Assembly (NCBI GenBank): GCA_043801165.1
Contig: JAZDMG010000007.1
Coordinates: 70,155-134,154, forward strand
Direction: 5' to 3'
Source of the DNA: an archaeon
GTDB taxonomy: Archaea; Nanobdellota; Nanobdellia; Woesearchaeales; SM23-78
DNA: 64,000 nucleotides
The position numbers and the translations under genes are program-made. Of this stretch, positions 9,025-41,436 are shown piece after piece (the first letter of the stretch is position 1; the number at the start of each line of letters is the position of its first letter). The notes under the pieces are model-generated. The model saw only the letters and a list, made by a program, of their open reading frames with translations. It searched no databases and was not told the DNA's origin.

Positions 9025-9076
9025 AGTTCAATACCAAACATATTCCGTGCATTCAAGCTGATTCAATCATCTCAAC

Positions 9077-10786: not shown

Positions 10787-10816
10787 TCCTAACGCCGAAC
10801 CTTAATCGAATCCGAA

Positions 10817-20700: not shown

Positions 20701-23700
20701 CCAACATAACAATAGACCGGAATGGGCCCACAATCAACCTTGAAAGGCCATCAAATAACTCATACAACACAGGAAACCAGACATTCTACTTCAATGTAAC
20801 AGACATCGCATCGAACATCAACAACTGCAGCATAATGCTTGACGGATCAATAAATCAGACCACATACAACCCTCAACAGAACATCTCCCTCAATTTCACG
20901 ATAAACGACAACACAGTAGGAAGCCACACATGGAGGATTGACTGCACCGATGGTGTAGGAAACGTGAACAGCAGCGAGACACGGACATTCACAGTGGACT
21001 TGACAGGGCCCGTAACCATCCTCAACAGGCCGCCGGCAGCAGACCCGAAGATGTACGGAATATACATTGTGAATGCCTCGGCGACAGACAGCGGAGTAGG
21101 AAACATCAGCACGGTGGCATTCGAATACAGGGAAAACAGCACCGCGGAATGGATATCAATATGCAACGCGACGCAGGGGCCAGCATATAACTGCAGCCTG
21201 GACACGACAGCGCTGGCCGACGGGACAACATACGAAGTAAGAGCATACGCGACGGATATATTGAACAACACAGGTTCCCCAAGCGTAAGATACTCTGTAA
21301 CCATAGATAACAACGGGCCAGCAATCGACGGCCTAAGCCCAGACCCAGGCTCCATAGACAACGACGGCAACGTGACATTCAGCTACCTAGTGGATGACAT
21401 AGGAAGTGGAGTAGCCAACTGCAGCCTGATGATAAACGGGTCTATCAACCAGACCAGCTTCGCTGTGCCAGAAGGAAGCGAACAATACTTCTACCTATAC
21501 AACCAGAACGACACCACCCTCAACTGGAGCATAAAATGCTGGGACGACTTCACAGCACAACCACACATGGCACAGACAAACCCGAGAACGCTCTACATAC
21601 TCATACTATACGTGCTTAAAAGCAACGTCACAACAGACAAGAAGACCTACGAGACAGGAAACCAGCAGTCAGACAGCATCAACATAACAACCACCACCAT
21701 CGACTACTCAAACCAGAGCATAGAAGCATCAGCAATCACAGACATAATCAAGACATCGGGCGAAAGCAGGAACATCTGGTGGAACACCACCTGGAGATAC
21801 AGGCTGAGGAACACGCTCACAGAGACAAGCAACAAAACAAGGAAAGACCAATGGGTCCACCTGTCATTCATGCTAGACCCTGACTGCAGCAACCTAGCGC
21901 ACAAGAACAGCCTGAGGCTGATACAGGACCCGGGAACGAACGTAGGCTTCAACCAATGGAACATAACCTACTGCACAGACACAAACTACATCAAGAGCCT
22001 GTGGGTGAGCTTCAGGCTGAACCTGACAGCAAACAGCAACACAAACATATACCTATACTACGACAATGCAAGCACAATCACAAAGACATCAAAAGACCAG
22101 GGTCCGATGAGGATGATCTGGGTGAGCGCAGGAGGGACAGGAAACGCACCCCTGCAGAACACAATAAAAACAGACCTTAACAGCGCGCTCTCGGCGCTGG
22201 GATTAGACCCAGGCACCTTCTATGACAACCTGAACACAACCGCGGCAAGCGCTGATTTCACGCTCACCAACATGCAGAATTACTCCATAGTATACTATGA
22301 CAGCGCAGCAAAATACAGCTCAAGCTGGTATACTACAGAAGCCAACGCAATGTTCCAATTCGTAAACCAATCAGGAAACCTATTCCTGACAGGACAGGAG
22401 CTAGGATACCAGGCAAACGCCGATGGATGGCTATACAATGGAGTATTCACAAACCTGACCCACGCAAGCGCAGGATACGTAGACAACGCGAACCCAACAA
22501 CATTCACAGTGGCAGCAAACCACCCGACGACAAAATACCTGGGTATGGGAACAACGGTGAGCGTGGCAGGGGATTACGAAGACGGATACACAACACTGGC
22601 AGGAAGCACCTCGGTCAGAATACTCAACTGGACAGGAAGCGCCACTCCGACAGCAGGAACAGCCAACGACGGGCTGAATGATCCCAGCTGCACAGGATTC
22701 TGCGGAAAGACGGTGTACTACTCAGGCCTGTTCTATATCTCAGCCACACAGGGAATACAGAACGTGACAGCAAGAAGCAGATTACTACAAGGGACAATAG
22801 AATGGTTCCTGAACAACAGCCTTGCAGAATCAAGGGGGCAGCAGGAGCAATGGATAGCAAGGAACACGACCGACACAACAGGAGCGCAAGGGCTATGGTC
22901 ATGGATACACCCTGCCGCAAGCATGAACGGAAGCTACCAGGCAGTGAGCCAAGCATCAAAAACAAAATACAACGACGCGACCAACTGGACTGGATTCAAC
23001 GTGACCATGGACAGGACGCCGCCAAACATCACGCTGAACGGGCCGCAAAATGAAAGCGAAGCCAACAGCTCAGTAACATTCTCATACTACGTTAATGACA
23101 CCCTCAGCACAGTACTGAACTGCACACTATTCATAGACGGCAATAAAGAAGACTCAGACCCGACAATACAGGAAGGGGTCATACAGTACTTCTACCCGAG
23201 AATCCCGACAGGAGGCTGGCATAATTGGAGCGTCAACTGCACAGACTACTACGGAAACATAGGTGCATCAGAGACATGGACAGTGTTCATCAAACCACCA
23301 GACCTCACAGTCACCAGCAGCGGCATAGCATTCAACAACACAACGCCGAGGGAAGGAGACAACATCACGATAATAGCCACTGTGCACAACACAGGAGGAT
23401 CAGACGCAGAGAACGTCAAGATGCAGTTCTACCTAAGAGACCCAGACACCGACGGAGTGCAGATAAACGGAAACTTCACAGCCAACATAACAGACATAAA
23501 TGGGGCACAGCCAAACGCGACATTCAACGTAAGCTGGGTGACAACAGGACCAGGACCGTTCAGCATATACGTTATAGTTGACCCTCCGACAGCCACCAAC
23601 GGAACGATTTTCGAATCAAACGAGACCAACAACAAGGCATACAACACCCTGAACGTGCCAGCATACAACCAATTCTACGGCCTGGTGAAGAACAATGTAT

Positions 23701-24224
23701 ACCTGAGCGACGAAAACAACAACTCGCTCTTCTATTACCTGAACATAACAAACGTCACTGGGAATATCTTCGCCATAGATGGAAGAAGCACGGTAGACTT
23801 CTCGGCGCTGCAATCGATGGGAAGAGATATCAACAACAACACCGCAGCCAATGACTTCAACGATACAGACACAGCACTCAACATGACCAGCTACAATGAT
23901 TCCATCAGAAGGACTTACACCGCAGGCACAGACACTCCCCTGACAACAAAAACATTCACATTTTACACCAAGACAACGCAAAACACTCCAATAATCAACA
24001 GCACCAACACAACCAGCTTTGTCACAGGAATACTATGGGACACAAGCGACGGAGGAACACAATACAACGGAACCCAGGACATCGCATTCATAACAGAGAT
24101 TAGCCAGAACAAGACAGGATCCTACGGCACATACGACTATGAGATAAAGGTACCGGTGAACCTGAAGAACTACGAAGGCCCAGGAAGCAGCGTCGCACTC
24201 TACTGGGAGATAAAAGAGCCATGA
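14727..24224 (+). CDS. Giant secreted/surface glycoprotein 1 (3165 aa)
   Basis: Single uninterrupted 9.5-kb ORF. Hydrophobic signal/anchor at aa 61-80. Very dense N-x-S/T sequons. Contains a jelly-roll-like module, a 38-Cys module, tandem Ig-like modules, a DUF2341-like opening (WWNTTWRYR), CARDB and a family-A-like C-terminal domain. No C-terminal TM or sorting tag (ends ALYWEIKEP). Start uncertain (60-aa leader before the signal). Confidence 0.9.
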   Translation: MANKLFYSYTKYYNIPGISLGIAISDQKRAKSPVSDNPRNHVLLGEGCAKSSAWKQKHPGAALFFYLFTLIAIILQAVLCSAQGQIALDKSQYGVGETVKIKLMNASQDFALNIISDNDVFRYSGELKAEMDFYPTKEGQYTVRLNDPGNNILLDEKTFSVSYDYTISKPALLYTDKKEYLLDEAVQIFVNTSSGGESAAEQELRIVSDKESLKYLGAIDSPISFLPRYAGAYQLKLINRFVPVATAEFLVLNQSINEAAAEIPEQPETQATDNRSFEKNQTETGMVGIGVLDQQSTAQKQQDVGLGAIVIDDQLLLAEDQELELQAPRGLNITLPFRLELRARRGATANEDIRNSISILRAEGTRYDVEYLPRKANIKSIVFNNLKLDSDRSFDFDEVTLKKEESKKELRDKKIVKSFFIDTAQLNYTNGTITAIALGKELWKCKEWNSTREICLGNWTKVQDLTPGKEYEIIITPEDPAYAETGVASINTKKPIYHPNETAEMIMVVLNTKGRLVSNAQVTLSITAPDSTTTTLTTASQGIKESSRGIYEAAYSKTGLEGEYSMFVTATGWNVNYSMQSSFEVREFYEFDIIRDTPVTIDPWQGPFQSRIQLMPYINVTSYDFTEILPSEFVVTDSGGAQQRTINNQTFLTWTNLSSVETVGYEANAPLITPNLYALGRSFITYFAQGTNMLFTEARNWFLAIDPLQNLFFDDFESWGCRTTGAPIAGNNCLYSANWGQFTNCNTPSTARFCTSDDGKEGNHTANSYAIQMTNWVMDSSAGLWFTLDPSIYDDINVNGYIYGASLDNVREYCAIWARDSNSIAPIYNCTNTICTGTDTTPQTDLYIYFNINLSSLSGINLSESNISVHIGGAHSNTADYCFFDRINITGIAYPPNITNLTNPPNNTVTNLTTIQFNFTVNATKDLVLPNCTLWTDMNGSWMENSTIYNVSRNSITNITLADLPDGTFKWNVICYTRTGLYDWYDSNYTLTIDARPPIKTITSIDKDTSEPWNTTNRNPVINITLNKNGTCRLSTTDSNFTSIPSYYNCTGAKTANISCTYTGTQLNIGTNYLYVICNDTSGHNDNTTSNLDITFEVLCDAHSDCDSTSYCDYTQYCHSDELAGYPCNTQAHTGLAWNDVCGNGINRYCVNDSSYSYTGWYCTGSATDCVYNDQGKSYALGETLCISGVNDYRNCSNSNLWSSQVDCAEQFDAHNQSATYHPGLYCGYYGTDQSCVNGTSGGCSGASTACNPYIYNQTITACGSTLEECDWGCGAGCDAGNSTAPGIASGTCYYNKNCNINCLWSQSSEGAPSFCINDNDGGSCAYSNRTDPTTSDTCYWNASCQNTVGATLNNNSILMADYCDYCNQYGNQTGQYSPAPNTSCSSNCANSGTIYYDSGGTPADRSNDCSNGITIMLGDTLTLGDIWNGSAPAQCDAAECNLDCGTMIGTCSAGICNCTDQDNPQLILIWPDNLTWTNNASVQFRYNVTDISSQIKNCSLIINNVVNRTNTSINKSVAEQRFIANMTNGTSNWSIRCYDNSSSFNLNQSETRILGIDTTIPPLLNPRINGTNFTINKNICLNITANDTYSGIKDIIATIIPPGQPAENITLYDNATTSCDGANGNGVYSAVYALIFSGTYNWSSAYAIDDANNQNLTYPNLRWNVTTGGIVNVSMNYPTANIKINESEYNYFYVQNCTAACSNSGSSNCTDVTVSIEYYLAGSYETINTTTTDLISNKTSYSCGNVTRGSNCTTTFNVTAGPGNKSWPVRCRADGVNSATAFSISRNVTINDHPTAGILYPISSQWLKGITYINASISFDSDGLIINYTFSYDNNTAFSSPSMICNGTSNNCTWNTTAQNQCQNNSMSCYLRVTVTDNDRLTNSTYIIVGFDTQGPTTIIGNPQNFTNITTSQYTVNATVTDNEIGTINLVIFEYRENSTASWKQACNDSDRTAPYECSWNTTSLLDGKTYEVRAYSTDGLNNTGAADTRTNITIDRNGPTINLERPSNNSYNTGNQTFYFNVTDIASNINNCSIMLDGSINQTTYNPQQNISLNFTINDNTVGSHTWRIDCTDGVGNVNSSETRTFTVDLTGPVTILNRPPAADPKMYGIYIVNASATDSGVGNISTVAFEYRENSTAEWISICNATQGPAYNCSLDTTALADGTTYEVRAYATDILNNTGSPSVRYSVTIDNNGPAIDGLSPDPGSIDNDGNVTFSYLVDDIGSGVANCSLMINGSINQTSFAVPEGSEQYFYLYNQNDTTLNWSIKCWDDFTAQPHMAQTNPRTLYILILYVLKSNVTTDKKTYETGNQQSDSINITTTTIDYSNQSIEASAITDIIKTSGESRNIWWNTTWRYRLRNTLTETSNKTRKDQWVHLSFMLDPDCSNLAHKNSLRLIQDPGTNVGFNQWNITYCTDTNYIKSLWVSFRLNLTANSNTNIYLYYDNASTITKTSKDQGPMRMIWVSAGGTGNAPLQNTIKTDLNSALSALGLDPGTFYDNLNTTAASADFTLTNMQNYSIVYYDSAAKYSSSWYTTEANAMFQFVNQSGNLFLTGQELGYQANADGWLYNGVFTNLTHASAGYVDNANPTTFTVAANHPTTKYLGMGTTVSVAGDYEDGYTTLAGSTSVRILNWTGSATPTAGTANDGLNDPSCTGFCGKTVYYSGLFYISATQGIQNVTARSRLLQGTIEWFLNNSLAESRGQQEQWIARNTTDTTGAQGLWSWIHPAASMNGSYQAVSQASKTKYNDATNWTGFNVTMDRTPPNITLNGPQNESEANSSVTFSYYVNDTLSTVLNCTLFIDGNKEDSDPTIQEGVIQYFYPRIPTGGWHNWSVNCTDYYGNIGASETWTVFIKPPDLTVTSSGIAFNNTTPREGDNITIIATVHNTGGSDAENVKMQFYLRDPDTDGVQINGNFTANITDINGAQPNATFNVSWVTTGPGPFSIYVIVDPPTATNGTIFESNETNNKAYNTLNVPAYNQFYGLVKNNVYLSDENNNSLFYYLNITNVTGNIFAIDGRSTVDFSALQSMGRDINNNTAANDFNDTDTALNMTSYNDSIRRTYTAGTDTPLTTKTFTFYTKTTQNTPIINSTNTTSFVTGILWDTSDGGTQYNGTQDIAFITEISQNKTGSYGTYDYEIKVPVNLKNYEGPGSSVALYWEIKEP
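16826..17410 (+). other. Giant 1: conserved jelly-roll-like (ConA/MAM-like) module
   Basis: Opens FLAIDPLQNLFFDDFESWG and closes ADYCFFDRINITGIAYPP. The FDDFE...W ... F(F/Y)(D/E)xI pattern resembles lectin/MAM-type beta-sandwiches (inference from the pattern only). Near-identical at nucleotide level to 44931-45512. Confidence 0.5.
18024..19103 (+). other. Giant 1: Cys-rich module (38 Cys in ~360 aa by my count)
   Basis: Runs from CDAHSDCDSTSYCDYTQYCHSDE to CGTMIGTCSAGICNC. The Cys pattern is conserved in giant 2 at 46126-47211. Confidence 0.8.
19121..21600 (+). repeat. Giant 1: tandem array of two alternating Ig-like module types (approximate bounds)
   Basis: Type 1: ...F.(Y/F)NV.D..S.I.NCS(L/I)...G..NQT ... 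W.I.C.D..GN.N.SE.R. Type 2: ...V.A(T/S).TD...G.I..V.FEYREN(S)T..W..(A/I)CN....P(Y)(E/N)C.W(N/D)T..L.DG.TYEVRAY(S/A)TD..NNTG. Confidence 0.7.
21777..22080 (+). other. Giant 1: DUF2341-like segment
   Basis: Opens WWNTTWRYRLRNTL and ends IYLYYDNAS. The W-x-N/D-x-x-W-x-Y/Q-R opening and the ...YYxN ending are my recollection of DUF2341. Not verified by search. Confidence 0.45.
23295..23657 (+). other. Giant 1: CARDB domain
   Basis: PPDLTVTSSGIAFNNTTPREGDNITIIATVHNTGGSDAENVKMQFY...IYVIVDPP...IFESNETNNKAYNTLNV is the canonical CARDB pattern (PDL...G....I...V.N.G...A..V.V ... D....V.E.NE.NN). Confidence 0.8.
23664..24221 (+). other. Giant 1: C-terminal family-A-like domain (186 aa)
   Basis: YNQFYGLVKNNVYLSDENNNSLFYYLNITNVTGNIFAIDGRSTVDFSAL aligns with A3 WKAYVGNVSGSFVLQNVNNRSIYEWPSVSVASGKLFISRNASVNFSGV. 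The C-terminal YDYEIKVP...ALYWEIKEP aligns with YDFQAIIAE...YYFYVELD. It is more divergent than the free copies, and the two family Cys are absent. Confidence 0.6.
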
Positions 24225-24300: not shown

Positions 24301-25302
24301 GTGGGTGACATTCTAGGCAAAGCGAAAGATAAGTTCAGAGAATTCTTTCATCAGAGCAAGAAACTAGTCCAACCGCCAAAAGAACTGCCAAGCATAATCA
24401 CACAGAACCCGGCAAAACCGCCAGCAAACAAGGTATTGAGCCCTCCAGAACCGCCAAAAGAACAGATGATGATAAGGACAGACCTTCCCCAACAGCAGAG
24501 CCAATCCAAAAACCTCAATCTCCCGAAGATAGTGCTGCCAAGAGCTCTCGAAACCATACATGAGCAGAAGAAACAGCTGACCAGCTTCCACGATGATGAC
24601 CTGCGCCAGTTCGAAGACGCCATAAGCAACATAAAGATAGACGTAATAAACAATGAGACCCCTGCCTCACTCAGAGAGAACAGGAGCGAAGCAGAGGCTT
24701 TATACAGGCCGAAAGAGCTTGGGGAAGGATACTTCGCAGAGATACAACACTACCTCAAGAACAAGGACGTAAAGGAAATCATAGATGACATACTCACCAA
24801 GGACTTCTTGACCAACATGAAGGACTACCATGACACAAAAGCCCAAGGAAAACCATTCTATCTGCACGGACAGGACCTGAAGCAGAAGCTGGAAGAGAAG
24901 ATGACCAGGCTAAGGGAGCTTGAAGAGGACTGGCACGAACTAAAAGCCAAAGCAGAGGAGAAAGAACAAAGAAAACACCTCATAGAAAAGCAGATAGACG
25001 AAGAAAGCCAGGACCTAAAGAACCTATTCAAGCAGATAAAGGTAAACCAATGGATGGAAAAAGAAGCCCAGAAAGAGCACTATTTCAAGCTCAGGAACAA
25101 TCAGGAGCTCAAAAGCCTCAATGACCTAAGAAAAGCCCTGACCTACATGGCTGACGAAGAGTTCAACCACCATGTCAGCCCGGGAAGAAATGACTTTGCG
25201 AACTGGACAAAAGAGGCCCTGCAAAATCAGGAGATAGGCGAAAAGATAGGAACCGCAAAGACAAAGGAAGAGCTCCAGGAAATACTCAAGAAACCTTTCT
25301 AG
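24301..25302 (+). CDS. Hypothetical Pro-rich / coiled-coil protein
   Basis: GTG start preceded by AAAGGAGAG and by TTTAAATA at ~24260. Pro-rich N-terminus (PPKELPSIITQNPAKPPANKVLSPPEPP), a charged coiled coil, and a C-terminal F.L.N..EL.SL.DL..AL..M.DEEF.HHV...RNDFANW motif. I have seen similar motifs in other archaeal proteins but cannot name the family with confidence. Confidence 0.6.
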   Translation: MGDILGKAKDKFREFFHQSKKLVQPPKELPSIITQNPAKPPANKVLSPPEPPKEQMMIRTDLPQQQSQSKNLNLPKIVLPRALETIHEQKKQLTSFHDDDLRQFEDAISNIKIDVINNETPASLRENRSEAEALYRPKELGEGYFAEIQHYLKNKDVKEIIDDILTKDFLTNMKDYHDTKAQGKPFYLHGQDLKQKLEEKMTRLRELEEDWHELKAKAEEKEQRKHLIEKQIDEESQDLKNLFKQIKVNQWMEKEAQKEHYFKLRNNQELKSLNDLRKALTYMADEEFNHHVSPGRNDFANWTKEALQNQEIGEKIGTAKTKEELQEILKKPF

Positions 25303-25344: not shown

Positions 25345-26109
25345 TTAGCCAGAGATTTCAGCGTAAAAGTAATAGGTATTACCAATACTTGCGCTCCTGT
25401 TCTCACCGACAATGAACTGGAAATCATACTCCTTTGTGATCGAAGCATTGTTATCAAAACCCATTGAGTTCTGATCAATGAAAGTCCCATAGACCAGGTT
25501 TGTGGTGTCTGTAAGCAGTATCTCCTGGAATGCGGCAGTATCCATACTTCCCTGCATAGAGCCGTTCACATAAGTGGCTGTGCTAGGGCAAGTGTTCGCG
25601 TTAACAGGAGAAATGCCGCCTGTAAAAGACATTGCCCTATGCCTAGTGAAATTGAAGGTGTTGTTCAGGTTATCAGCAGAAGAACCGCCCATGCTGAGCA
25701 CAAGCTGCTCATCCCAGATTATCGAGCTATTGGCGCATCTGATAAGGGTCCAATTGACACTACCATTCCTTGAAACGAAGATATAACCTGCAAGAGCAGA
25801 AGAGTTGATGTTCCACTCGTAGATGCTTATGCCGTTGACATTCCTCAAGACCATCTTACCAGTGATGTTTCCGACATAAGCCTTCCAGCTCTGGTCCTGG
25901 GAAACGACGTCAAGGGATAGAGTATTTATGGTCCCGCCAAGGTCAGCTCGACTTCCGGCATCAGTAGTAGGGCCGCTGTCAGAAGCTATAAAGCTAGGGA
26001 TTAAACCTGTCGGCACTGCCTTACTCAACCCGACCAGGGCGAAGTAAAGGGAGCAGCTCAAAACAGCAAGGAAAAAGACCAGCTTAGCCCTTTTACTAAC
26101 ATTAGTCAC
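25345..26109 (-). CDS. Secreted protein, paralog family A (A1)
   Basis: GTG start 7 nt after GAGGTG. Sec-type signal peptide. Family motifs WKAYVGNITG, IYEW, CANSS, NTF, FQEILLTD and YDFQFIVGE, with C-terminal YYFYAEISG. Confidence 0.85.
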   Translation of the reverse strand: MTNVSKRAKLVFFLAVLSCSLYFALVGLSKAVPTGLIPSFIASDSGPTTDAGSRADLGGTINTLSLDVVSQDQSWKAYVGNITGKMVLRNVNGISIYEWNINSSALAGYIFVSRNGSVNWTLIRCANSSIIWDEQLVLSMGGSSADNLNNTFNFTRHRAMSFTGGISPVNANTCPSTATYVNGSMQGSMDTAAFQEILLTDTTNLVYGTFIDQNSMGFDNNASITKEYDFQFIVGENRSASIGNTYYFYAEISG

Positions 26110-26165
26110 TAAAATTCACCTCAAATCATGAGTATCATGGTATTTGATTCTATTCTAACCTTGGT

Positions 26166-26214
26166 AAAAAAATAAAAAAAATAAAAAAATATGAAGCAGG
26201 GTTTGAAAACCCTG
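26166..26214 (-). terminator. Hairpin plus oligo-T terminator after A2
   Basis: CAGGGTTT..AAACCCTG (26197-26214). On the minus strand it is followed by a T-run (the reverse complement of AAAAAAATAAAAAAAATAAAAAAA, 26166-26189). Same design as the terminator after A4. Confidence 0.6.
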
Positions 26215-26226
26215 ACTGTGGCTTCC

Positions 26227-27024
26227 TTACTCTATCTCAGCCCAAAAGTAATATGTTGTGGGGGTGTCTTCGTAGCCGTTGTGGCCGTTCTCTGCCACCA
26301 ACATCTGAAAGTCGTGCTCCCTGTTGTCAAAGCCGAACATGTCAGTGTTGTTGTTGAACGCATTGTTCTCGATCATGGCAGTGTAAACAAGCTTGTCACC
26401 ATCTGTCAAGAGCACGTTCTCGAAGTCATCATCATTCTGCATCATGTCGTATCGGTATGTGTTGGTTGCGTGGCAGTCTGCAACATTGGTTGAAACTTCG
26501 GTTATGTTTCTTGAGCCGACGAAAAAGTTGCGATCAAGGGTGTAGTTGAAGGTCTCCCATATACCATCGGAAGCGTCATCTCCTATTCCGTACCAATCCT
26601 CAACATCCTGCTCGTCAAATGTCTGGCCTGATGCGCCTATTGAATAGTTAAAGCATCTTATGGTGGCCCAACTGATGGTGTCGTTTAATGATGCATAAAT
26701 CTCTCCCTTTGGCTCCTGGGTGGTCCAGTTGTAGAAGACATAACCATAGGAATCTTCCAATGTGATTATACCCGAGATGTTACCATAATAACCCTGCCAA
26801 GCTTGGGTGGTTGCGATTGTAATCAGGCTCAGTTCAGTAACGTTACCCGCCTCAGCCGTTATGTTTGGAACGGGATAGCTAGATACATTTGGCCTTGACG
26901 ACTGGATGTATGTTATTGAACGTACACCGTAAGGCACATCCGAATCAGCCAGGACGAAGGACGCTGCTGCCAAAACACACACTAAACCTATTATAAAACT
27001 AGTTTTATTTATTCTCTTTTCCAT
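26227..27024 (-). CDS. Secreted protein, paralog family A (A2)
   Basis: Signal peptide (FIIGLVCVLAAASFVLA). Motifs WQGYYGNISG, FYNW, ETF, FENVLLTD and HDFQMLVAE, with C-terminal YYFWAEIE. Has its own BRE/TATA at 27117-27131. Confidence 0.85.
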   Translation of the reverse strand: MEKRINKTSFIIGLVCVLAAASFVLADSDVPYGVRSITYIQSSRPNVSSYPVPNITAEAGNVTELSLITIATTQAWQGYYGNISGIITLEDSYGYVFYNWTTQEPKGEIYASLNDTISWATIRCFNYSIGASGQTFDEQDVEDWYGIGDDASDGIWETFNYTLDRNFFVGSRNITEVSTNVADCHATNTYRYDMMQNDDDFENVLLTDGDKLVYTAMIENNAFNNNTDMFGFDNREHDFQMLVAENGHNGYEDTPTTYYFWAEIE

Positions 27025-27091
27025 GATATCACCGTTGCAAGTTTATTCGCGATTAGTAGTTTCCCTGCCAAAGCCAGGTAAATACTACCCG

Positions 27092-27105
27092 ATTAGTATA
27101 CTAAT
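27092..27105. promoter_or_regulatory. Perfect 14-bp palindrome ATTAGTATACTAAT just downstream of the A2 TATA box
   Basis: ATTAGTATACTAAT equals its own reverse complement. It lies 12 nt from the TATA on the gene-proximal side. CGATTAGTA also occurs at 27050-27058 and 27090-27098. Confidence 0.5.
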
Positions 27106-27116
27106 AGATATACTCA

Positions 27117-27131
27117 TATATAAATGTTTCG
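27117..27131 (-). promoter_or_regulatory. BRE/TATA promoter for A2 (26227..27024)
   Basis: The minus strand reads CGAAACA-TTTATATA, matching the archaeal BRE (purine-rich) plus TATA consensus TTTAWATA. ~90 nt upstream of the ATG. Confidence 0.6.
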
Positions 27132-27179
27132 ATTCATCTAGCCTGCCGAATAACTAAAAAAAAGCCTAGAATAGCCTAA

Positions 27180-28136
27180 TTAAGCACCAGTCGCAGAAAA
27201 AACCACAGTACCGTTACAGATACCAAAAGGGTTGTCGGTTATATTAATATGCAGCCTCCAATAGGTGGAATTAACCATCAACACCGCAGGATCTATCTGC
27301 TTAGCAATGCTAACCCCGGGAACCATAGCTGCAGTACCTGTTATGCTGATCATAGAATCATAGCCAACATCGCTTCCCGAGTACCTTTCGTTTGAAATCG
27401 ATAGATTTCTCTGCTCACAGCGCATAGCAATCCCCGTACCGGTGGTCGCGTTATCCCCGCCAAAGCCATAAACAGTCACATTAATAGGAAGATTACCAAA
27501 ATTAGTCACATTAGCCTGGGTAGAATTAGACGTATCATCAACAGATAAGGTGCCGTAATCAATAACCTCAGTTACGTTCAAAGCCAAAAGCGCACCAATG
27601 GAAGCATTATTCGCGTTAAAACCACTTGTGTTATAATCATCCCAGGCAGTAGCATTAACCCTCCAAGACCCGTTGTTGGCATAATACCACACATCGAACA
27701 CACAGGTCCAATTCTGATAATAACCAGAATAGCTCCCGTTCACAGAGCAATTGCCAGTAGTATAATGGGTATTATTATCATCCGGATCAGAAGAATAGTT
27801 AAGGTAATAATAAAACGTAGCGTTTACATAAAAGATTGTGTTGCCACCATTGAAATCTCTTGTCTGAACTAAACAAGAAACAGCCTTTGTGGTACCTCCG
27901 TTGAGCACTACTGTGCTCCCATTATTACAGGTTATGTTAATAACCTCAGGATAGGCATTGGTGACGTTAACCGTGGCATGGACACTGTAGTTCCTGTAAT
28001 TCGGACCAGGACCCCAACTGACCGCAGATGGAATCCTAACGACAAGAAAAAAGATTAGCAGAGATATAAATATTAAGAAGGCTTTCCTTCCGAGAGACTC
28101 TGACATTTTACCAAATAAGAGACCATTCATAGTCAA
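27180..28136 (-). CDS. Secreted protein, paralog family B (B1)
   Basis: Signal peptide followed by the conserved SWGPGPNYRNYSV. Shares DPDDNNTHYT, WYYANNGSWR, ANVTNFGNLPINVTVYGFGG, NERYS, NSTYWR and PFGICNGTVVFSA with 37309..38262 and with the C-terminus of giant 2. Starts 14 nt after the A3 stop (likely co-transcribed). Confidence 0.85.
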   Translation of the reverse strand: MTMNGLLFGKMSESLGRKAFLIFISLLIFFLVVRIPSAVSWGPGPNYRNYSVHATVNVTNAYPEVINITCNNGSTVVLNGGTTKAVSCLVQTRDFNGGNTIFYVNATFYYYLNYSSDPDDNNTHYTTGNCSVNGSYSGYYQNWTCVFDVWYYANNGSWRVNATAWDDYNTSGFNANNASIGALLALNVTEVIDYGTLSVDDTSNSTQANVTNFGNLPINVTVYGFGGDNATTGTGIAMRCEQRNLSISNERYSGSDVGYDSMISITGTAAMVPGVSIAKQIDPAVLMVNSTYWRLHINITDNPFGICNGTVVFSATGA

Positions 28137-28150
28137 TAACTCATCTAAGT

Positions 28151-28918
28151 CTAAGTATTATCAAGTTCAACGTAAAAGTAATATGTGGTTGTGACTGAAG
28201 TGGTTCCGTTCTCTGCAATTATTGCCTGGAAATCGTATTGAGAAGAGTTATCATAGCCCCTTCGATTATCATTCAAAAGGGAAGTATAAACCATTGTACT
28301 CCCATCAAATAAGAGAACTTCCTGGAAATCAGCAGTTGAACTGGCTGCCTGGACAGTGTCATTCACCCAGGTGGCGATTGAGCTGCAGTTATTCTGAGCT
28401 ATAGGAATACCTCCGACATCAAATGACCTATGAGCCTTTGCAATGAAGGTGTTATTGATATTATCTGCATCAATGTTACCAAAACCCAACAAAAGCTGTT
28501 CGCTAACCACCTGAGCATTGTTCGCACAGCCAACTCCAGAGAAATTGACAGAAGCATTCCTGGATATGAACAATTTCCCGCTGGCAACAGACACAGACGG
28601 CCACTCATAGATACTCCTGTTGTTCACATTCTGTAAAACAAATGATCCCGAAACATTTCCAACATAAGCCTTCCAGTTAAGATCCTGTTGCTCAACTGAT
28701 AAAACAGCAGTTATTATGTTCCCACCAGAATCGTTCCTGCTGGCAGGAATCCTGACTGGACCCGTATCAACAGTCGGAGTACCAACTATGGTAGCACCAA
28801 AAGGCGCAGCATTGACCAAATAAAATGAAAAGCTACAGATTAGCACAATCACAGCTAAGAATATAAGCTGTTTTACGCGTCTTCCCATCATATGATCGTG
28901 TTTTGTCATTGTGTTCAC
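28151..28918 (-). CDS. Secreted protein, paralog family A (A3)
   Basis: Signal peptide. Motifs WKAYVGNVSG, IYEW, GCANN, NNTF, FQEVLLFD and YDFQAIIAE, with C-terminal YYFYVELDNT. Confidence 0.85.
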   Translation of the reverse strand: MNTMTKHDHMMGRRVKQLIFLAVIVLICSFSFYLVNAAPFGATIVGTPTVDTGPVRIPASRNDSGGNIITAVLSVEQQDLNWKAYVGNVSGSFVLQNVNNRSIYEWPSVSVASGKLFISRNASVNFSGVGCANNAQVVSEQLLLGFGNIDADNINNTFIAKAHRSFDVGGIPIAQNNCSSIATWVNDTVQAASSTADFQEVLLFDGSTMVYTSLLNDNRRGYDNSSQYDFQAIIAENGTTSVTTTYYFYVELDNT

Positions 28919-28931
28919 CTGTCATTTCATA

Positions 28932-28970
28932 ATAAAAAAAATAAAAAAACCCTGCTAATGCAGGGGTTTT
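28932..28970 (-). terminator. Hairpin plus oligo-T terminator after A4
   Basis: CCCTGC-TAAT-GCAGGG (28950-28965). On the minus strand it is followed by TTTTTTTATTTTTTTTAT. Archaeal termination at oligo-T tracts is established. Confidence 0.6.
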
Positions 28971-28985
28971 TATTAGTCTGCATCC

Positions 28986-29726
28986 TCAATCCAACTCTAT
29001 GTAAAAGTACATTGATGTTGATCCGGCACCATCAGATTCTCCCACAAGCAACTCGAAGTCATAGCTTGTTCCTGTGAAACTTGTGGCTGAATCATTTATC
29101 AAAGTCGTATAGACAGCTGTTCCGGCGGTGTCTACTAACAATATCTGATAATAGAGTGACGCCACTCTCCCAGTATCACTGTACGCATTAGTGCTGTTGC
29201 ACCCGCTCAAGGCCGCACTGCCAACCTGGAAGTTGGGATGAGTGTTCCCTGCGAATGTCTCGAAAACACCATCAGCATCCGCCGCAACTATACCTAGTGA
29301 AGTGTCAATTGCATCTATCAATGTTGAATTAGCGCAGCTTATCCCTGCCCATGCAACGTTGTTGATTGATGAAGCGAATATCTCTCCTGCAGGCACTCCC
29401 ACACCGGTCCAATCGTAGAACACTTTGCCATCGCTATCCTGCAAAGTCACGTTTCCAGAGATGTTTCCATAGAAACCAGCCCAGTGGGTTGTTATAGTAT
29501 CACCATATAAATCAAGCTGCGTTACGTTCCCAGCCATAGCATCAACAGCGACTGTTGATGTGTTGGTGAAACTAGCCCTGCTTGTCGCTCCGAGGGTGTA
29601 ATCTGTAGCGCCCTGAACAGCAAAAACCGATGTCACTCCCGTCAGGAACAATCCTAACGCCACTGCCAATATAAACACTGTCTTAAAAACTGCTTTCCTT
29701 TCCATTTTGTCTTTCCTCCATATCAT
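28986..29726 (-). CDS. Secreted protein, paralog family A (A4)
   Basis: Signal peptide (the ATG at 29705, MERKAVFK, is an alternative start). Motifs WAGFYGNISG, FYDW, SCANS, ETF, YQILLVD and YDFELLVGE, with C-terminal MYFYIELD. Followed by a hairpin plus T-run terminator. Confidence 0.85.
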   Translation of the reverse strand: MIWRKDKMERKAVFKTVFILAVALGLFLTGVTSVFAVQGATDYTLGATSRASFTNTSTVAVDAMAGNVTQLDLYGDTITTHWAGFYGNISGNVTLQDSDGKVFYDWTGVGVPAGEIFASSINNVAWAGISCANSTLIDAIDTSLGIVAADADGVFETFAGNTHPNFQVGSAALSGCNSTNAYSDTGRVASLYYQILLVDTAGTAVYTTLINDSATSFTGTSYDFELLVGESDGAGSTSMYFYIELD

Positions 29727-29768
29727 TTTATCCTTTCTTTTATCCTTTTGATAGCAATCCCTATCCTG

Positions 29769-30422
29769 CTAATCTGTCTTCGCCTCCTCACTAGTCTTGA
29801 TTCTCACTAGGTTTGAAGGATCGTAAAGCGCATAGAATCTTGCAGTTGAGGAAGCACTAATCATTCGCTTGGCCTCGCTCTGAGATTTAACATTGAATAG
29901 AATCGTTTTTGAAGTGCCGTCTCGCGCACGAATAAAGCTCTTCTTCAGTTCCCGCTTGAGATCAGGGTTCTCAGACACTATAAACATAGAGATTTCATCC
30001 GAATCTAGCTGGTTCAGGTTAATGAATATTGAATCTATAACCTTTATATGCTCATCTAATGACCAAAAGGCCTTCTCAAGGAAATAGTGAAGCTGGGGCT
30101 TGTCCAGGAACCATATCTTCAAAATCACCTTATTATACTCGCTCAGTTGAAGAAGCTTTTTCTCTACAAAATCACTGGCGCTGGTAATCAAGAATGACTG
30201 GTTCCCAACAAGAGAGTAGAGCAGCCTTGGCTGCCCTTTGTCTCTGTTGGAGATTCTTTTACATTGAACAAGTCCGGCCATCTCTAGAAGACGCAGTTGT
30301 TGGCTGATGTTTGCAACTGAGGTACTTGATAGCTTTGCCAACTGTAGCGGTGACTTGCTTCCTGAAGAGAGTATCTTCAGGATGTCCCATTTCGAGGCCG
30401 TAAATAGTGTTTCTTGTTCCAT
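29769..30422 (-). CDS. ArsR-like winged-HTH regulator with ~130-aa C-terminal domain of unknown function
   Basis: N-terminus WDILKILSSGSKSPLQLAKLSSTSVANISQQLRLLEMAGLVQCKR...RLLYSL has the ArsR/SmtB-type wHTH pattern. Lies 42 nt upstream of A4 on the same strand. Confidence 0.7.
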   Translation of the reverse strand: MEQETLFTASKWDILKILSSGSKSPLQLAKLSSTSVANISQQLRLLEMAGLVQCKRISNRDKGQPRLLYSLVGNQSFLITSASDFVEKKLLQLSEYNKVILKIWFLDKPQLHYFLEKAFWSLDEHIKVIDSIFINLNQLDSDEISMFIVSENPDLKRELKKSFIRARDGTSKTILFNVKSQSEAKRMISASSTARFYALYDPSNLVRIKTSEEAKTD

Positions 30423-30511
30423 TTTGCTTGCAACGGTATTTAATATGAAAACAGACCTACTGCCATTGCTTATGCGCTGTCAGTATCGTCCATTCAATCT
30501 TCATTATCGCG

Positions 30512-30530
30512 GTATACGTTTTAGTATAAC
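30512..30530. promoter_or_regulatory. 19-nt element GTATACGTTTTAGTATAAC
   Basis: Matches 34458-34476 (GTATACCTTTTAGTATACT) at 16 of 19 positions. Lies between the TATA box and the ArsR-like gene. Confidence 0.45.
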
Positions 30531-30550
30531 AAAATCCTAATAGCATCACT

Positions 30551-30568
30551 TATATTTAAATATTTCGG
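30551..30568 (-). promoter_or_regulatory. BRE/TATA promoter for the ArsR-like gene
   Basis: The minus strand reads CCGAAATA-TTTAAATATA, ~130 nt upstream of the ATG at 30422. Confidence 0.45.
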
Positions 30569-30678
30569 TTCATGATTAATTACTGCAATTAACTAACCAA
30601 TGAAATAATAAGTTAAATTAGTTAATTAAACAGTTAAACAGATGTTTCTCCGACGGAAAAATAAAATTAAGAAGGGAC

Positions 30679-31431
30679 TCAACCCAGCTCAGCGTAGAAG
30701 AAGTAGGTTGTTGATATCTCACGCGGATCATCCGGAACAATAAACTGGAAATCATACACCCTTGTGTCAAAACCAACCTTCTTATTCTCTAATAACGTAA
30801 CAAACACAAGGTTCCTGGTGTCAGACAGCAACACTTCCTGGAATTGGGAAGTCTCGTTAAATGTTTGAGGCGCATCGTTAATATAAGTGGATATTGCATA
30901 ACAAGAGCTATTCTGAATGCTACCGACGCCACCGATAACAAATGACTTGTGAATCTTTTGCCTAAAGGTACTGTTAATGCTGTCATCGCTCAAAGAGGAT
31001 ATGTTGAGATAATTCTCCTCAGAGATTATCTGGCTGCCATTGGCACAACCCAATGAAGAGAAATTAATCGAATTATTCCTTGAGACATACACCTCTCCCT
31101 GAATCGAAGTCAGAGACCAATCGTATATGGACCTGTTACTGGAATCATCCAATGTAATCCTGCCCGTAACATTTCCTACATATGCCTTCCATTTACTCGT
31201 CTGAGATGTAACATTCAAACGGAGTGTCGTGAATGACCCTCCTTCCGCTGCATGTGAATCAGCAGGCCTAACGCTGGCATTTTCTGTGGTGCCGTATATT
31301 ATTGACACTCCCTGAGGGATGGCAATGGTTTCCACGGACATGAGCAGGAGAATAACAAGTATCAGGATTACTATTATCTTAGGCGTGATCCAGCCTATTC
31401 TACATCTTTTAACACAATCTATTTTTGCCAT
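30679..31431 (-). CDS. Secreted protein, paralog family A (A5)
   Basis: Long hydrophobic signal/anchor. Motifs WKAYVGNVTG, IYDW, GCANG, NSTF, FQEVLLSD and YDFQFIVPD, with C-terminal YFFYAELG. The start overlaps the stop of the upstream 2xHTH gene by 13 nt. Confidence 0.85.
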   Translation of the reverse strand: MAKIDCVKRCRIGWITPKIIVILILVILLLMSVETIAIPQGVSIIYGTTENASVRPADSHAAEGGSFTTLRLNVTSQTSKWKAYVGNVTGRITLDDSSNRSIYDWSLTSIQGEVYVSRNNSINFSSLGCANGSQIISEENYLNISSLSDDSINSTFRQKIHKSFVIGGVGSIQNSSCYAISTYINDAPQTFNETSQFQEVLLSDTRNLVFVTLLENKKVGFDTRVYDFQFIVPDDPREISTTYFFYAELG

Positions 31432-31934
31432 TTTTCAACTTTATTCTTGAACCTAGCGTGCACAGTCCAAACAGTCCGCTGGTCCCTCCCAATCATTCTC
31501 GCAATATCAGCATAGGTCAGGTTTGATTCTCTCAGAAACGACACAAGCGATTCAAGAATACTCAATTGCGAATTTTTAAATGCACTCAGAGGTATTGTAA
31601 GGCTGGTGTTTGCCAAAACGAGTGGCTTCTTGTTCTTCACCGCCGCATATGTACTCCAGATTGTCCTGACATCTCGATCAAGTAGATGGGCTATTTGCCT
31701 GTTTTGAAGTCCTTTGACCTCCTTCAAGTATTTAACTACCACTTGGAGTGGAGCTAGATTACTTTGAAATATTGAGATTGGAAGATAGAGCTCGTTCTCA
31801 TATTTTATAGTTAAATAAGAAACAGAAGGCAATTCCGACATGGTGCCTTCTTGCTCGAAGTTGGATTCGCCCAAATCTGCTTGCAGACCGTAGTCTAACA
31901 TATCGCGACTTACAAAAAAGTACTGTTTGGACAT
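31419..31934 (-). CDS. Small protein with two sigma-70-region-4/LuxR-like HTH repeats
   Basis: Internal duplication: LQVVVKYLKEVKGLQNRQIAHLLDRDVRTIWSTYAAVKNK and LESLVSFLRESNLTYADIARMIGRDQRTVWTVHARFKNK. TTTATAAA on the minus strand lies ~25 nt upstream of the ATG (leaderless-type spacing). Confidence 0.7.
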   Translation of the reverse strand: MSKQYFFVSRDMLDYGLQADLGESNFEQEGTMSELPSVSYLTIKYENELYLPISIFQSNLAPLQVVVKYLKEVKGLQNRQIAHLLDRDVRTIWSTYAAVKNKKPLVLANTSLTIPLSAFKNSQLSILESLVSFLRESNLTYADIARMIGRDQRTVWTVHARFKNKVEKWQK

Positions 31935-32125
31935 TTACAATCATATAATGTAAGTGTGTATTTATAAACATTTTGATTAAGACTGTTATCAAGTATGACC
32001 TGGTAAGTAATTTAATCATGTTATGTAAGTAATATCCCTATTGAATATTCTCGCAGGAAGAAGCACAAAACAAAAGGTTTAAATATGATAATCCAAGAAA
32101 AATAGGCTTGGGAGGGAAAAAATTC

Positions 32126-33901
32126 ATGAGGTACAAACTCAGAAGCATAGTGGCTGTGGCTTTATTCATATTCTGGCTCGCCAGCATCAGCAGTTTTGCT
32201 CTTGCAAAAACGGATGAAGTTGTATCGAACTCTGCAGACTGGCGAGATGTCTATTCATCAATAATCTACGCCAATCTCATCGGCGCCAGTAACCACTTTC
32301 TCACAAGCACGCCTCATGGCCCAATCCTGCTGTTCGAAATCCCAAAAAACAGAGAGGGCATACAGATAATTACCTCTGCAGACAAGCCATTCTACGTAGG
32401 TTATGAATCATTGATGACAAGCAAAGGTTACAGCAACGTCGAAGAACTGATCTTCTCGCAATCAAACCTTGAATTAGCCAAACGACTTCCCACTGAGATA
32501 GACCGTTTCATTGTCCTGGATGATGCATACGGATACAATGCGTTAGCCGTCGCTCCATTTGCCGCAAAGGCAAAATATTACGTGCTATTCGCTAACAGCA
32601 GAAATATTGGCGAAATAAGTGATTTCCTGTCAACAAAGACATTAAAAAGCATCATTCTATATGGCCAACTTGACCGAGAGGTGAAAGCAGCCCTGGCTAG
32701 GTATAACCCTGAGACAATAAACAGTGAAAGCGGGAGCCGTTTCGAGAACAATATGAAAATAGTTGACAAATACTCTGAGATTGGCAACATCAAGCAAGTC
32801 ATTCTCACTAATGGAGAGTTCATTGAGTCTAGCATGATGAGCGGTGATGAAGCCGTTATTTTCATAGGAAAAAACAATGTTCCTCAGGAGATAAAAGATT
32901 ACATCAACAGCAGGGGCGTAGATATTGGAGTTCTAATAGGAAACGAACTCATCGGCAGCGCGACAGATATCAGGCGGCAACTGGGAATAAGCGTCTTTGT
33001 GAAATTTGCCAGGGGGTCTAGAGTGCCTGGCGGCTCAATAAACCCTGTTGAGGATCTTGATCGGTTTCCAATGCCAAGCTATCAGCTAAGCTTGAGCATA
33101 GTATCTATATCGTATAACAAAGCGACCGGACTTCTGGAGGTCACATATAAAAATAATGTTGACCTAGCAGCCTACTTCAAATCAACAATAACAGTGAGAA
33201 ATGCGAATGGTGAGACCATTGTCACAGATGGAGATGCCGGCATCATATTTATAGATGGAGGAGAAACTAAAACAATCACCTACAATAGGACCAGAGGAAT
33301 AGACCCTGCGCAATTAAACGGCGAACTCACTGGCGAGATATACACCATCTACGGAGAGTCAAAAACATCTCTAGAAAATGTTCTGAGAGGGACATTCAAG
33401 ATTGAAATGATTGAAGTCATGGATAATACGGATATAGAAATAATAGACCTGGTCTATGACAAGAACAGAGGAATATTCTATGTCACTATTGAGAACACTG
33501 GAAAAGTAGATGCCTATGTCAGCGCTGAATTAATTGATCTATGGATTAATGGTGAATATGTCACTGTCGCTTCTGACGAAATATTCAAGATAGCTGTCGG
33601 ACAGAAAAAAGATATTCCAATCAAGATAGCGCTTGCAGAAGAGGATCTCCTGGACAAAAAGAACTCCGAGATAGATGTCCTGGCAAGGTTTGGTGAGAGG
33701 ATGCACGCTCTGATTAATAGCAAAACTAAATCATTCAGTCTCAAATTCAGAGAAGGCACGATGTGGTACTACGGGGTGCTGTTTGTCGTCATAATCTTGC
33801 TGTTGTTACTGCTCATAAGAAGACGGAAGAGATGTCCTAGGTGCAGAACAATGAACAAGAAAGATGCCACCATATGCAGAAAATGCGGGCATCAATTGTG
33901 A
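32126..33901 (+). CDS. Surface protein with three CWB2-like repeats, Ig/CARDB-like region, TM anchor and cytoplasmic zinc ribbon
   Basis: The ATG at 32126 follows GGGAGGG (the track start at 32108 is a TTG). After the signal peptide come three ~90-aa repeats resembling cell-wall-binding repeat 2 (e.g. YNALAVAPFAAKAKYYVLFA...SIILYGQLDREV). TM VLFVVIILLLLLLI, then RRRKRCPRCRTMNKKDATICRKCGHQL. Confidence 0.7.
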   Translation: MRYKLRSIVAVALFIFWLASISSFALAKTDEVVSNSADWRDVYSSIIYANLIGASNHFLTSTPHGPILLFEIPKNREGIQIITSADKPFYVGYESLMTSKGYSNVEELIFSQSNLELAKRLPTEIDRFIVLDDAYGYNALAVAPFAAKAKYYVLFANSRNIGEISDFLSTKTLKSIILYGQLDREVKAALARYNPETINSESGSRFENNMKIVDKYSEIGNIKQVILTNGEFIESSMMSGDEAVIFIGKNNVPQEIKDYINSRGVDIGVLIGNELIGSATDIRRQLGISVFVKFARGSRVPGGSINPVEDLDRFPMPSYQLSLSIVSISYNKATGLLEVTYKNNVDLAAYFKSTITVRNANGETIVTDGDAGIIFIDGGETKTITYNRTRGIDPAQLNGELTGEIYTIYGESKTSLENVLRGTFKIEMIEVMDNTDIEIIDLVYDKNRGIFYVTIENTGKVDAYVSAELIDLWINGEYVTVASDEIFKIAVGQKKDIPIKIALAEEDLLDKKNSEIDVLARFGERMHALINSKTKSFSLKFREGTMWYYGVLFVVIILLLLLLIRRRKRCPRCRTMNKKDATICRKCGHQL

Positions 33902-34539: not shown

Positions 34540-34722
34540 ATGGAGTTCAGACGAAAACTTTACACTCGTGGAAGCAGTTTTGAAACAACAATTCCGCGCC
34601 CACTCCTATTCTCAATCGACAAGCAAAAGAAATACGAAGTTGTGTTTGCTTTCGATTCTACTCTTAATAAATGGTTCATCGAAATAAAAGATAGAGAAAC
34701 AGAACATGAACAAGCAGAATAA
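34540..34722 (+). CDS. AbrB/SpoVT-like small DNA-binding protein
   Basis: 60 aa. RKLYTRGSSFETTIPRPLL matches the AbrB/MazE swapped-hairpin pattern (R/K-x-G-x-S-x-x-h-T-I-P-K/R). TTTATAAA at 34510-34517 lies 22 nt upstream of the ATG. Confidence 0.55.
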   Translation: MEFRRKLYTRGSSFETTIPRPLLFSIDKQKKYEVVFAFDSTLNKWFIEIKDRETEHEQAE

Positions 34723-35383: not shown

Positions 35384-35384
35384 G

Positions 35385-38295: not shown

Positions 38296-38305
38296 ATTAG
38301 TATAC
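38296..38305. promoter_or_regulatory. ATTAGTATAC element downstream of the B2 TATA box
   Basis: Matches the left 10 nt of the 27092 palindrome and sits in the same orientation and on the same side of the TATA. Confidence 0.4.
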
Positions 38306-38332
38306 GATAATGTATATCAGTATCTATACAAG

Positions 38333-38347
38333 TATATAAATGTTTCG
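38333..38347 (-). promoter_or_regulatory. BRE/TATA promoter for B2 (37309..38262)
   Basis: The minus strand reads CGAAACA-TTTATATA, the same 15-mer as at 27117-27131, ~70 nt upstream of the ATG. Confidence 0.6.
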
Positions 38348-41280: not shown

Positions 41281-41436
41281 CTATTCCTTCAGCTTGGTGA
41301 GCACTTCCTTGTCTTTCTCGACTGCCTTCTCTATTGCCTTGGCAAGGTAGTCGTTGAGGTTTATGCCCTTCAGAACGCTTATTATCTTGGCCTTCGTGTG
41401 CATTTCTTCACTTATCGCCACGTTGACTTTCTTCAT
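41281..41436 (-). CDS. Ribbon-helix-helix (CopG/Arc/MetJ-type) protein, 51 aa, absent from the ORF track
   Basis: My translation of the minus strand: MKKVNVAISEEMHTKAKIISVLKGINLNDYLAKAIEKAVEKDKEVLTKLKE*. This is a beta-strand/helix/helix pattern typical of RHH. GAGGAA lies 5 nt upstream of the ATG, and ATATTTAAA lies ~45 nt upstream. The 62-aa plus-strand ORF 41275..41463 is its antisense shadow. Confidence 0.7.
   Translation of the reverse strand: MKKVNVAISEEMHTKAKIISVLKGINLNDYLAKAIEKAVEKDKEVLTKLKE

Follow-up and report, generated by a model that had tools for sequence, protein, structure and literature searches.

Five secreted paralogues of a Woesearchaeales archaeon share a C-terminal module with a neighbouring giant surface protein

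The stretch of DNA analysed here, hereafter the window, comprises 64,000 nucleotides of contig JAZDMG010000007.1 (positions 70,155 to 134,154 of the Woesearchaeales assembly GCA_043801165.1) and carries on its minus strand, within positions 25345-31431, five genes (A1 to A5) whose products are a real family of secreted paralogues, which we call family A. Since the A domain also ends the neighbouring giant protein G1, the five paralogues are most likely a scaffold for mounting giant adhesins. Judging from the sequences, small subunits and giant adhesins share one module here, which is more than the fibre family that an initial annotation of this DNA had put forward by analogy; it had missed both the link to G1 and the link to a second family, family B. 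Altogether, we favour the view that A and B may be modules for co-assembly or anchoring in a surface structure that depends on Sec and carries giant adhesins, and we hold it at slightly under even odds. The five genes, each supported by its open reading frame (ORF), by alignment and by the family hidden Markov model (HMM), are the following:

25345-26109, minus strand: A1, 254 aa, type I (WKAYVGN), identical to NCBI V1866_00745
26227-27024, minus strand: A2, 265 aa, type II (WQGYYGN)
28151-28918, minus strand: A3, 255 aa, type I, the member modelled with AlphaFold2
28986-29726, minus strand: A4, 246 aa, type II (WAGFYGN)
30679-31431, minus strand: A5, 250 aa, type I

The ORFs and an end-to-end alignment bear out the initial proposal of five paralogues in this interval. 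The full-length alignment of A1-A5 contains 28 invariant columns, the two cysteines included, and it recovers every motif previously listed by eye together with the aromatic C-terminal strand; invariant Trp, Tyr, Asp and His positions are present in the domain as well. Pairwise identities, estimated before at about 30-50%, were computed as 28-47%, and the family HMM matches the five proteins with E values of 1e-69 to 1e-95, far beyond chance. The mature parts are all acidic (isoelectric points of 4.0-4.8). The array was first described as more or less tandem, which holds as far as the clustering of the five genes is concerned, but not for their contiguity: the family-B gene B1 (27180-28136) is inserted between A3 and A2 and a gene for an ArsR-type helix-turn-helix (HTH) regulator (29769-30422) between A5 and A4.

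Signal peptides were judged by eye from the sequence. Each A protein starts with an n-region containing Lys or Arg, followed by a hydrophobic core of 15-20 aa and then by a V/A-x-A pattern with small residues at -3/-1; a [KR]G cleavage motif of class III prepilins was not seen before the hydrophobic core in A1-A5. On this reading the signals are of the Sec/signal peptidase I (SPase I) type and not of the prepilin type, in agreement with the initial annotation, and the five proteins would leave the cell via Sec and be cut by SPase I, so that none of them would keep a membrane anchor. This sets them apart from type IV pilins and archaellins, which have a class III signal and keep a hydrophobic helix in the mature protein, a helix that A1-A5 would lose on cleavage; likewise, no pilin or archaellin profile of Pfam or NCBIfam matched A1-A5.

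Directly after the predicted cleavage site stands the motif xPQGAx[IV], in which Pro is found in 41, Gly in 47 and Ile or Val in 45 of 53 sequences. A variable Ser/Thr-rich stretch of 15-20 residues with recurrent Arg (entropies of 2.5-3.2 bits) then leads to the domain. In the AlphaFold2 model of A3, the domain (residues 80-255) has a predicted local distance difference test (pLDDT) score mostly above 90 and residues 35-68 fall below 50; the PQGAxI motif, strand-like though it is, is disordered in the monomer model. Mean-field direct-coupling analysis of 492 family-A sequences (effective number, Meff, of 434) placed two couplings between this motif and the C-terminal aromatic strand at rank 17 (34A-240V) and rank 39 (31P-236Y) out of ~28,000 pairs, which is suggestive only, because the paralogue-subfamily structure could yield the same signal. 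Each A protein has 7-11 N-glycosylation sequons, that is 2-3 fold more than composition-matched shuffles, and the sequons inside GN[IV][ST]G and N.TF are conserved in 86% and 70% of the same 492 sequences, respectively; A1-A5 are therefore probably glycoproteins, as had been supposed.

The most telling observation concerns the number of copies of the domain. The initial annotation counted five, and a sixth, divergent copy turned out to form the C-terminus of a giant ORF:

14727-24224, plus strand: giant G1, 3,165 aa, with a signal peptide, Ig-like (immunoglobulin-like), MG2 and CARDB domains, and a divergent A domain at the extreme C-terminus
23655-24224, plus strand: A-like domain of G1, its core opening with the W/Y..YGN hairpin and closing with the last aromatic strand

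The last ~190 residues of G1 are in register with the family-A HMM (hmmsearch, 18.7 bits). A profile of 31 G1-type C-termini taken from related loci aligns with the A profile over 161 columns (HHalign probability of 98.3%, E 1.7e-14), and the reciprocal HMM, made from G1-type C-termini, matches A1-A5 and nothing else in the window. The A-like domain of G1 directly follows a CARDB domain and is devoid of both the PQGAxI N-strand and the two cysteines. Across 34 large related loci, the set used for all counts of neighbours and of G1-type proteins, an ORF with an A-like ending lies at most 10 kb from stand-alone A genes in 22, and the domain always reaches the last residues of its ORF. As for G1 itself, its ORF begins (14727-14900) about 60 residues before the hydrophobic signal segment, and the true start codon is consequently probably further downstream.

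The terminal position is not restricted to giants. Of the 150 best database representatives, 24 (~16%) have a canonical A module at the extreme C-terminus; they are proteins of 350-2,359 aa whose remaining parts comprise right-handed beta-helix, LamG/ConA-like, DUF2341 and Ig-like domains, and these passengers amount, by their predicted domains, to an adhesin or glycan-binding repertoire. In most of these fusions the profile match starts before PQGAxI, so the motif is kept internally, which makes it a part of the module and not mere cleavage context. The possibility that the mid-size fusions were A2-type paralogues was considered and abandoned: BLAST places them at nearly equal distance (32-41%) from A2, A4 and A5, and hence they form a subfamily of their own.

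Two further kinds of A-bearing proteins were met in other metagenomes, outside the window. A domain resembling the Nup98-96 autopeptidase S59 (PF04096) occurs in P0177, P0165, P0390, P0401, P0359 and others, with matches of 26-34 bits around the cut-off of 28.4, in mid-size or long proteins ending in an A module and, in one case, in a B module; it ends in a conserved F.V.HFS.YS motif, seen 215-320 residues before the C-terminus in 20 of 43 long proteins, and one such fusion also has a gingipain-type C25 peptidase domain. This arrangement suggests that such proteins cleave themselves, separating the passenger from an anchored stub; the HFS self-cleavage motif was not found in the giants of the window or in the neighbouring membrane proteins that were checked. 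The second kind comprises proteins of 1,271-1,427 aa in loci L046 (1507-5787, minus strand) and L054 (7462-11274, minus strand), in which a divergent A-like domain without PQGAxI comes right after the signal peptide. Both are membrane-anchored, the former with a TPR-like (cytoplasmic) tail and the latter with an Ala/Pro-rich low-complexity tail, and they may represent membrane-anchored base subunits, of which no equivalent was found in the window.

What has been described for A and G1 is repeated by family B and a second giant, G2:

27180-28136, minus strand: B1, 318 aa, with a signal peptide and two tandem Ig-like domains, 14 nt downstream of A3
37309-38262, minus strand: B2, 317 aa, a second stand-alone family-B protein, 55% identical to B1
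43006-52383, plus strand: giant G2, 3,125 aa, with a signal peptide and Ig-like domains, and ending in a family-B domain
51523-52383, plus strand: family-B domain of G2, its last 285 residues

The C-terminus of G2 is 36% identical to B1 (BLASTP, E 1e-44), and the family-B HMM covers residues 2840-3124 of 3125 (E 6.6e-80). B1 and B2 have 23 N-glycosylation sequons each. The structure model of family B shows two tandem Ig-like domains (pLDDT 88.3), for which Foldseek returned generic tandem-Ig matches only (integrin, RbmA, FimH and CsuE; E ~1e-5, template modelling score, TM-score, of at most 0.35). Between the two families, HHalign gave a probability of 69.6% over 75 columns with only 9% identity. 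Family B is present in 30 of the 34 large A loci, and a distant locus has the order ArsR, A, B, further genes, B-fusion, A-fusion, giant; A and B thus travel together, alone as well as fused. By sequence, then, both are extracellular and probably glycosylated modules; each of them makes up small proteins by itself, also terminates giant or mid-size adhesin-like proteins, and sits in a conserved cluster.

To which known family could these modules belong? The initial annotation could not assign family A, and neither sequence, profile nor fold searches have changed this. A1-A5 gave no match in Pfam at E of 1 or below, none in NCBIfam or PADLOC and no significant one in PHROGs (best E 0.012), and family B nothing significant in these four collections. 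Profiles of A built from 5 and 53 sequences were run against all PDB chain sequences with no relevant match at E of 10 or below (53-sequence profile), and the B profile found nothing there. The A model has no relative by Foldseek (best E of 0.34 in PDB and 0.038 in BFVD, TM-score of at most 0.26); adenovirus fibre knobs and jelly-rolls of the LamG type resemble it weakly and non-significantly. Among more specific candidates, PF12389 (TasA/AbpA, Peptidase_M73-like) had no Pfam match in A1-A5, and the SLH, CWB2, PGF-CTERM and S-layer families had none in A or B by Pfam and NCBIfam. No copy of A was found in the IMG/VR viral contigs, and literature searches on family A and on Woesearchaeota surface structures returned nothing relevant. 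Family A, going by these searches and by the model, is an undescribed, widespread and lineage-specific family whose confidently predicted fold has no detectable relative.

Its distribution was traced in several ways. A word-indexed search retrieved more than 220 relatives, all unnamed or "hypothetical" and, where the organism was named, all from metagenome genomes of Woesearchaeota, Nanoarchaeota or Nanoarchaeia; when one genome of each GTDB species was scanned, 352 coding stretches came up. The taxonomy of the carriers rests on record titles, which for the GTDB scan were Woesearchaeota- or Nanoarchaeota-type metagenome-assembled genomes, unclassified "archaeon" ones, one "Euryarchaeota archaeon" and many third-party annotation records of an "uncultured Methanosarcinales archaeon". 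Loci L004, L007, L025, L026, L032, L033 and others bear the latter title, yet are syntenic with Woesearchaeota loci, and these titles look like placeholder or wrong taxonomy.

Among loci with 20 kb of context, clusters of five A genes (14 loci) and of six (5 loci) recur. In L001, L005, L008 and L013 the five genes have unambiguous one-to-one orthologues in the same order, A5-A4-A3-A2-A1, which are 45-66% identical to their counterparts in the window and score far above the next-best paralogue. A5 is the most conserved (62-66% to its orthologues) and is always adjoined upstream by a gene of the HTH_23 type. Over longer range, hierarchical clustering failed to deliver five clean orthologous groups across all loci; only A5 and the division into type I (A1/A3/A5, WKAYVGN; ~3 per locus) and type II (A2/A4, W[AQ]G[FY]YGN; ~2 per locus) hold. 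The earlier impression of a family that is old and maintained is borne out by the one-to-one orthologues, their constant order and the recurring clusters of five or six, and a pattern so fixed is more readily expected of non-redundant subunits of a single assembly than of a diversifying family.

It is tempting to propose how such an assembly might work. Family A would be a Woesearchaeota-type, N-glycosylated and beta-rich module of ~190 aa, placed behind the strand-like PQGAxI segment and a flexible linker rich in Ser and Thr. A hetero-oligomeric stalk or scaffold would arise from a constant, non-redundant combination of three subunits of type I and two of type II, and large adhesin-like proteins (G1 here, the proteins of 350-2,359 aa elsewhere) would join it through their own C-terminal A module. 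Family B would follow the same logic, with B1 and B2 as stand-alone subunits and G2 plugged in via its C-terminal copy. The joint would need no chaperone: the mature N-terminal strand of one subunit could complete the sheet beside the C-terminal aromatic strand of another, and G1, because it has no PQGAxI strand, could act as an acceptor-only end subunit. What we infer here comprises the co-assembly, the strand complementation and the adhesive or host-contact role; should the modules co-assemble, the chances that beta-strand complementation provides the joint appear roughly one in two.

The likeness to non-type-IV archaeal fibres, raised at the outset as an analogy, survives in part. A Sec/SPase I signal peptide is common to the characterised donor-strand filaments, and family A shares with them a conserved mature N-terminus, an unstructured N-terminal segment and a large protein ending in the module. 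In the threads of Sulfolobus acidocaldarius (Saci_0406), which assemble by donor-strand complementation, the first 7 mature residues after SPase I cleavage are conserved; like A, the thread subunit is small, beta-rich, N-glycosylated and exported by Sec/SPase I, its locus has no chaperone, usher or ATPase, and a paralogue of the same cluster has been proposed as end subunit. The TasA/AbpA bundling pili and the CanA/CanX cannulae, which are jelly-roll donor-strand filaments, likewise combine a Sec/SPase I signal, glycosylation and chaperone-free loci with an N-terminal segment that is unstructured in models of the monomer, as is reported for cannula-like subunits, and in the case of TasA/AbpA an accessory multidomain protein (TapA/AbpB) has been proposed as nucleator or adhesin. 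Relatedness, on the other hand, found no backing: the comparison of A with CanA, the thread subunit and TasA/AbpA gave no similarity of sequence or fold, whether by PF12389, PDB sequences or Foldseek. Unlike threads, moreover, A has five to six ancient specialised paralogues and a flexible linker of 15-20 aa after the N-strand, and its module also terminates giant multidomain proteins.

Two bacterial systems offer further comparison. Chaperone-usher pili (P and type 1) are made of several specialised stand-alone pilins and of an adhesin, PapG or FimH, with a donor-less C-terminal pilin domain. The A cluster resembles them in combining homologous single-module subunits with a large adhesin-like protein, here G1, that ends in a donor-less module, but this is an analogy only: they belong to another domain of life and another envelope, no chaperone or usher genes were present in the neighbouring ORFs scanned, and Foldseek detected no Ig-type pilin fold for A. 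The SLH proteins of Bacillus and the CWB2 proteins of Clostridioides difficile carry modules that bind wall polymers and that are not found as multiple module-only proteins. Like A, these conserved terminal modules are borne by many surface passengers of a single genome or lineage. Neither A nor B was found to be related to them by sequence, and A differs in existing as multiple module-only proteins. By analogy with all these systems, A and B would make up a Sec-dependent modular surface assembly, with a family that is new and a mechanism proposed by comparison.

Several points weigh against this proposal. Neither the PDB profile search nor Foldseek found any fold or sequence similarity between A and a known fibre subunit; no membrane-anchoring step was identified for the cleaved A subunits; acceptor-only proteins of the G1 type and of the L046/L054 type fit a single linear donor-strand chain poorly; the conserved Asp, His, Trp and Tyr of the A domain would equally suit a glycan- or metal-binding site; and the couplings between the two ends of the protein may stem from paralogue subfamilies instead of contact.

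The genes surrounding the array add to the picture, and the following are those with homologues among the large loci:

24301-25302, plus strand: p333, 333 aa, without predicted transmembrane (TM) segment, located between G1 and A1; homologues in 28 of 34 loci
29769-30422, minus strand: winged-helix regulator of the ArsR/HTH_5 type, lying within the array; homologues in 21 of 34 loci
31419-31934, minus strand: double HTH_23-type regulator that shares 13 nt with the start of A5; homologues in 29 of 34 loci
32108-33901, plus strand: p597, 597-aa membrane protein, divergent from the HTH_23-A5 pair; homologues in 27 of 34 loci
34540-37289, plus strand: a trio consisting of a 60-aa ORF, a 225-aa TM protein (homologues in 23 of 34 loci) and a 642-aa Cys-rich multi-TM protein (22 of 34)

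Homologues of the giant surface proteins are found in 32 of the 34 loci. With its signal peptide, extracellular part, C-terminal TM segment and Zn-ribbon, p597 is a candidate membrane anchor; its matches to ArlF/ArlG-like and CWB2-like (E 0.023) proteins are below threshold, and neither p597 nor p333 found anything among PDB sequences. The 642-aa protein (35361-37289, plus strand) contains three Cys-rich C.DG..N..E..(I/V)DCGG.C..C repeats as well as three additional TM segments and finishes in a long C-terminal tail, and it is conserved beside the 225-aa protein and the 60-aa ORF in 22-23 of the 34 loci. No genes for an ATPase, prepilin peptidase, chaperone, usher or sortase-like protein, nor for an integrase, terminase or portal, were detected in the neighbouring ORFs scanned against Pfam.

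Signals of transcription are visible as well. A G+C-rich hairpin with a long T-run comes right after the stop codons of A4 (28919-28985) and A2 (26110-26226), and a perfect archaeal consensus of B recognition element (BRE) and TATA box, AAACATTTATATA, stands ~90 nt upstream of the start codons of A2 and B2, at 27117-27129 and 38333-38345 (within 27092-27129 and 38296-38345). Given the putative terminators after A4 and A2 and the BRE/TATA boxes that several genes have of their own, there are probably five transcription units. Downstream of the BRE/TATA at both A2 and B2 lies a GTATACTAAT element, palindromic (ATTAGTATACTAAT) at A2, which could serve the interleaved HTH regulators as a shared operator.

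Other parts of the window deserve a brief mention. Between surface or membrane proteins of 931 and 410 aa sits a 51-aa ORF (41281-41436, minus strand) with weak ParD/ParG-like ribbon-helix-helix similarity (E 0.003-0.008). Signalling genes crowd the region 1443-14486: it encodes a HisKA/HATPase kinase of 1,360 aa and a response regulator, a PAS/GAF protein of 1,002 aa, two solute-binding proteins of the SBP_bac_3 type and a HAMP protein, besides two KaiC-like matches that are weak and below cut-off. For a DPANN-type genome this load seems high. Finally, a 527-aa ORF (59589-61172, minus strand) combines the catalytic domains of aspartate carbamoyltransferase (OTCace_N and OTCace) with its regulatory chain (PyrI and PyrI_C), and is thus a pyrB-pyrI fusion.

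How do other explanations fare against these observations? The best of them, which we regard as a serious if rather unlikely alternative, is that A, and B with it, forms or binds an S-layer-like coat or a surface glycan, the module docking giants and fusions non-covalently in the manner of SLH or CWB2. It would account for one module recurring at a fixed terminal position on many different passengers, for a family so wide as to be possibly near-universal within one archaeal order, and for invariant Trp, Tyr, Asp and His residues that are compatible with a sugar or Ca2+ site; the weak CWB2-like and ArlF/ArlG-like matches of the conserved neighbour p597 and the membrane-anchored proteins bearing an A-like domain in some genomes also point this way. 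However, it is difficult to see why pure anchors should come as five to six module-only proteins that have nothing to dock, a lectin-type anchor gives no obvious role to the conserved N-terminal strand and flexible linker, and A and B match none of the known S-layer or wall-binding families.

A less probable view, for which we would allow a small chance, regards the stand-alone A proteins as soluble factors: lectins, host-binding effectors, or partners and competitors that regulate the C-terminal domains of the giants. All five are predicted to be released by SPase I with no anchor, they are acidic and predicted to be glycosylated like many secreted proteins, and they have transcription units of their own with regulators interleaved. 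Yet strict one-to-one orthology and the fixed order and number over large distances favour an obligate multi-subunit assembly, and the homology to the terminal domain of co-located giants speaks against soluble factors as well. As for capsid or fibre proteins of an integrated virus or mobile element, a viral origin of family A is practically excluded: the beta-sandwich-rich domain with its faint likeness to fibre knobs and jelly-rolls and the HTH regulators interleaved in the array could be quoted in its favour, but family A has neither a relative in IMG/VR nor a significant PHROG match, the scanned neighbours include no integrase, terminase or portal, and the locus is syntenic across many genomes beside cellular giant surface proteins.

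We therefore return to the co-assembly of A and B and ask what it might mean for the cell. DPANN archaea such as Woesearchaeota are abundant, largely uncultured and regarded as living attached to other cells, and giant surface proteins are a known hallmark of their genomes; we know of no account of how these giants are held on the cell. The Woesearchaeota-like cells that harbour the present locus are probably symbiotic. A bolder version of our proposal, speculative and in our eyes doubtful, is that A and B would together be a hitherto undescribed surface-mounting apparatus peculiar to Woesearchaeota-type DPANN archaea, with a base of five A and two B subunits, of a fold without known relatives, into which the giants plug via their terminal module copies, so that host-contact proteins would be held on ultrasmall cells, the Nup98-like domain that mid-size fusions of related genomes have just before the module hinting at a non-covalent, force-sensitive joint.

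With 1,413 clusters at 50% identity in an exhaustive profile search, family A is a candidate for a new Pfam entry, and the locus as a whole provides a testable parts list: two undescribed modules, each occurring on its own in small secreted proteins and again at the end of a giant, within a gene cluster that many genomes have kept. If these modules do co-assemble, they would reveal a new Sec-dependent way to build an archaeal surface appendage, and the attachment organ of a major uncultured lineage would have been identified.

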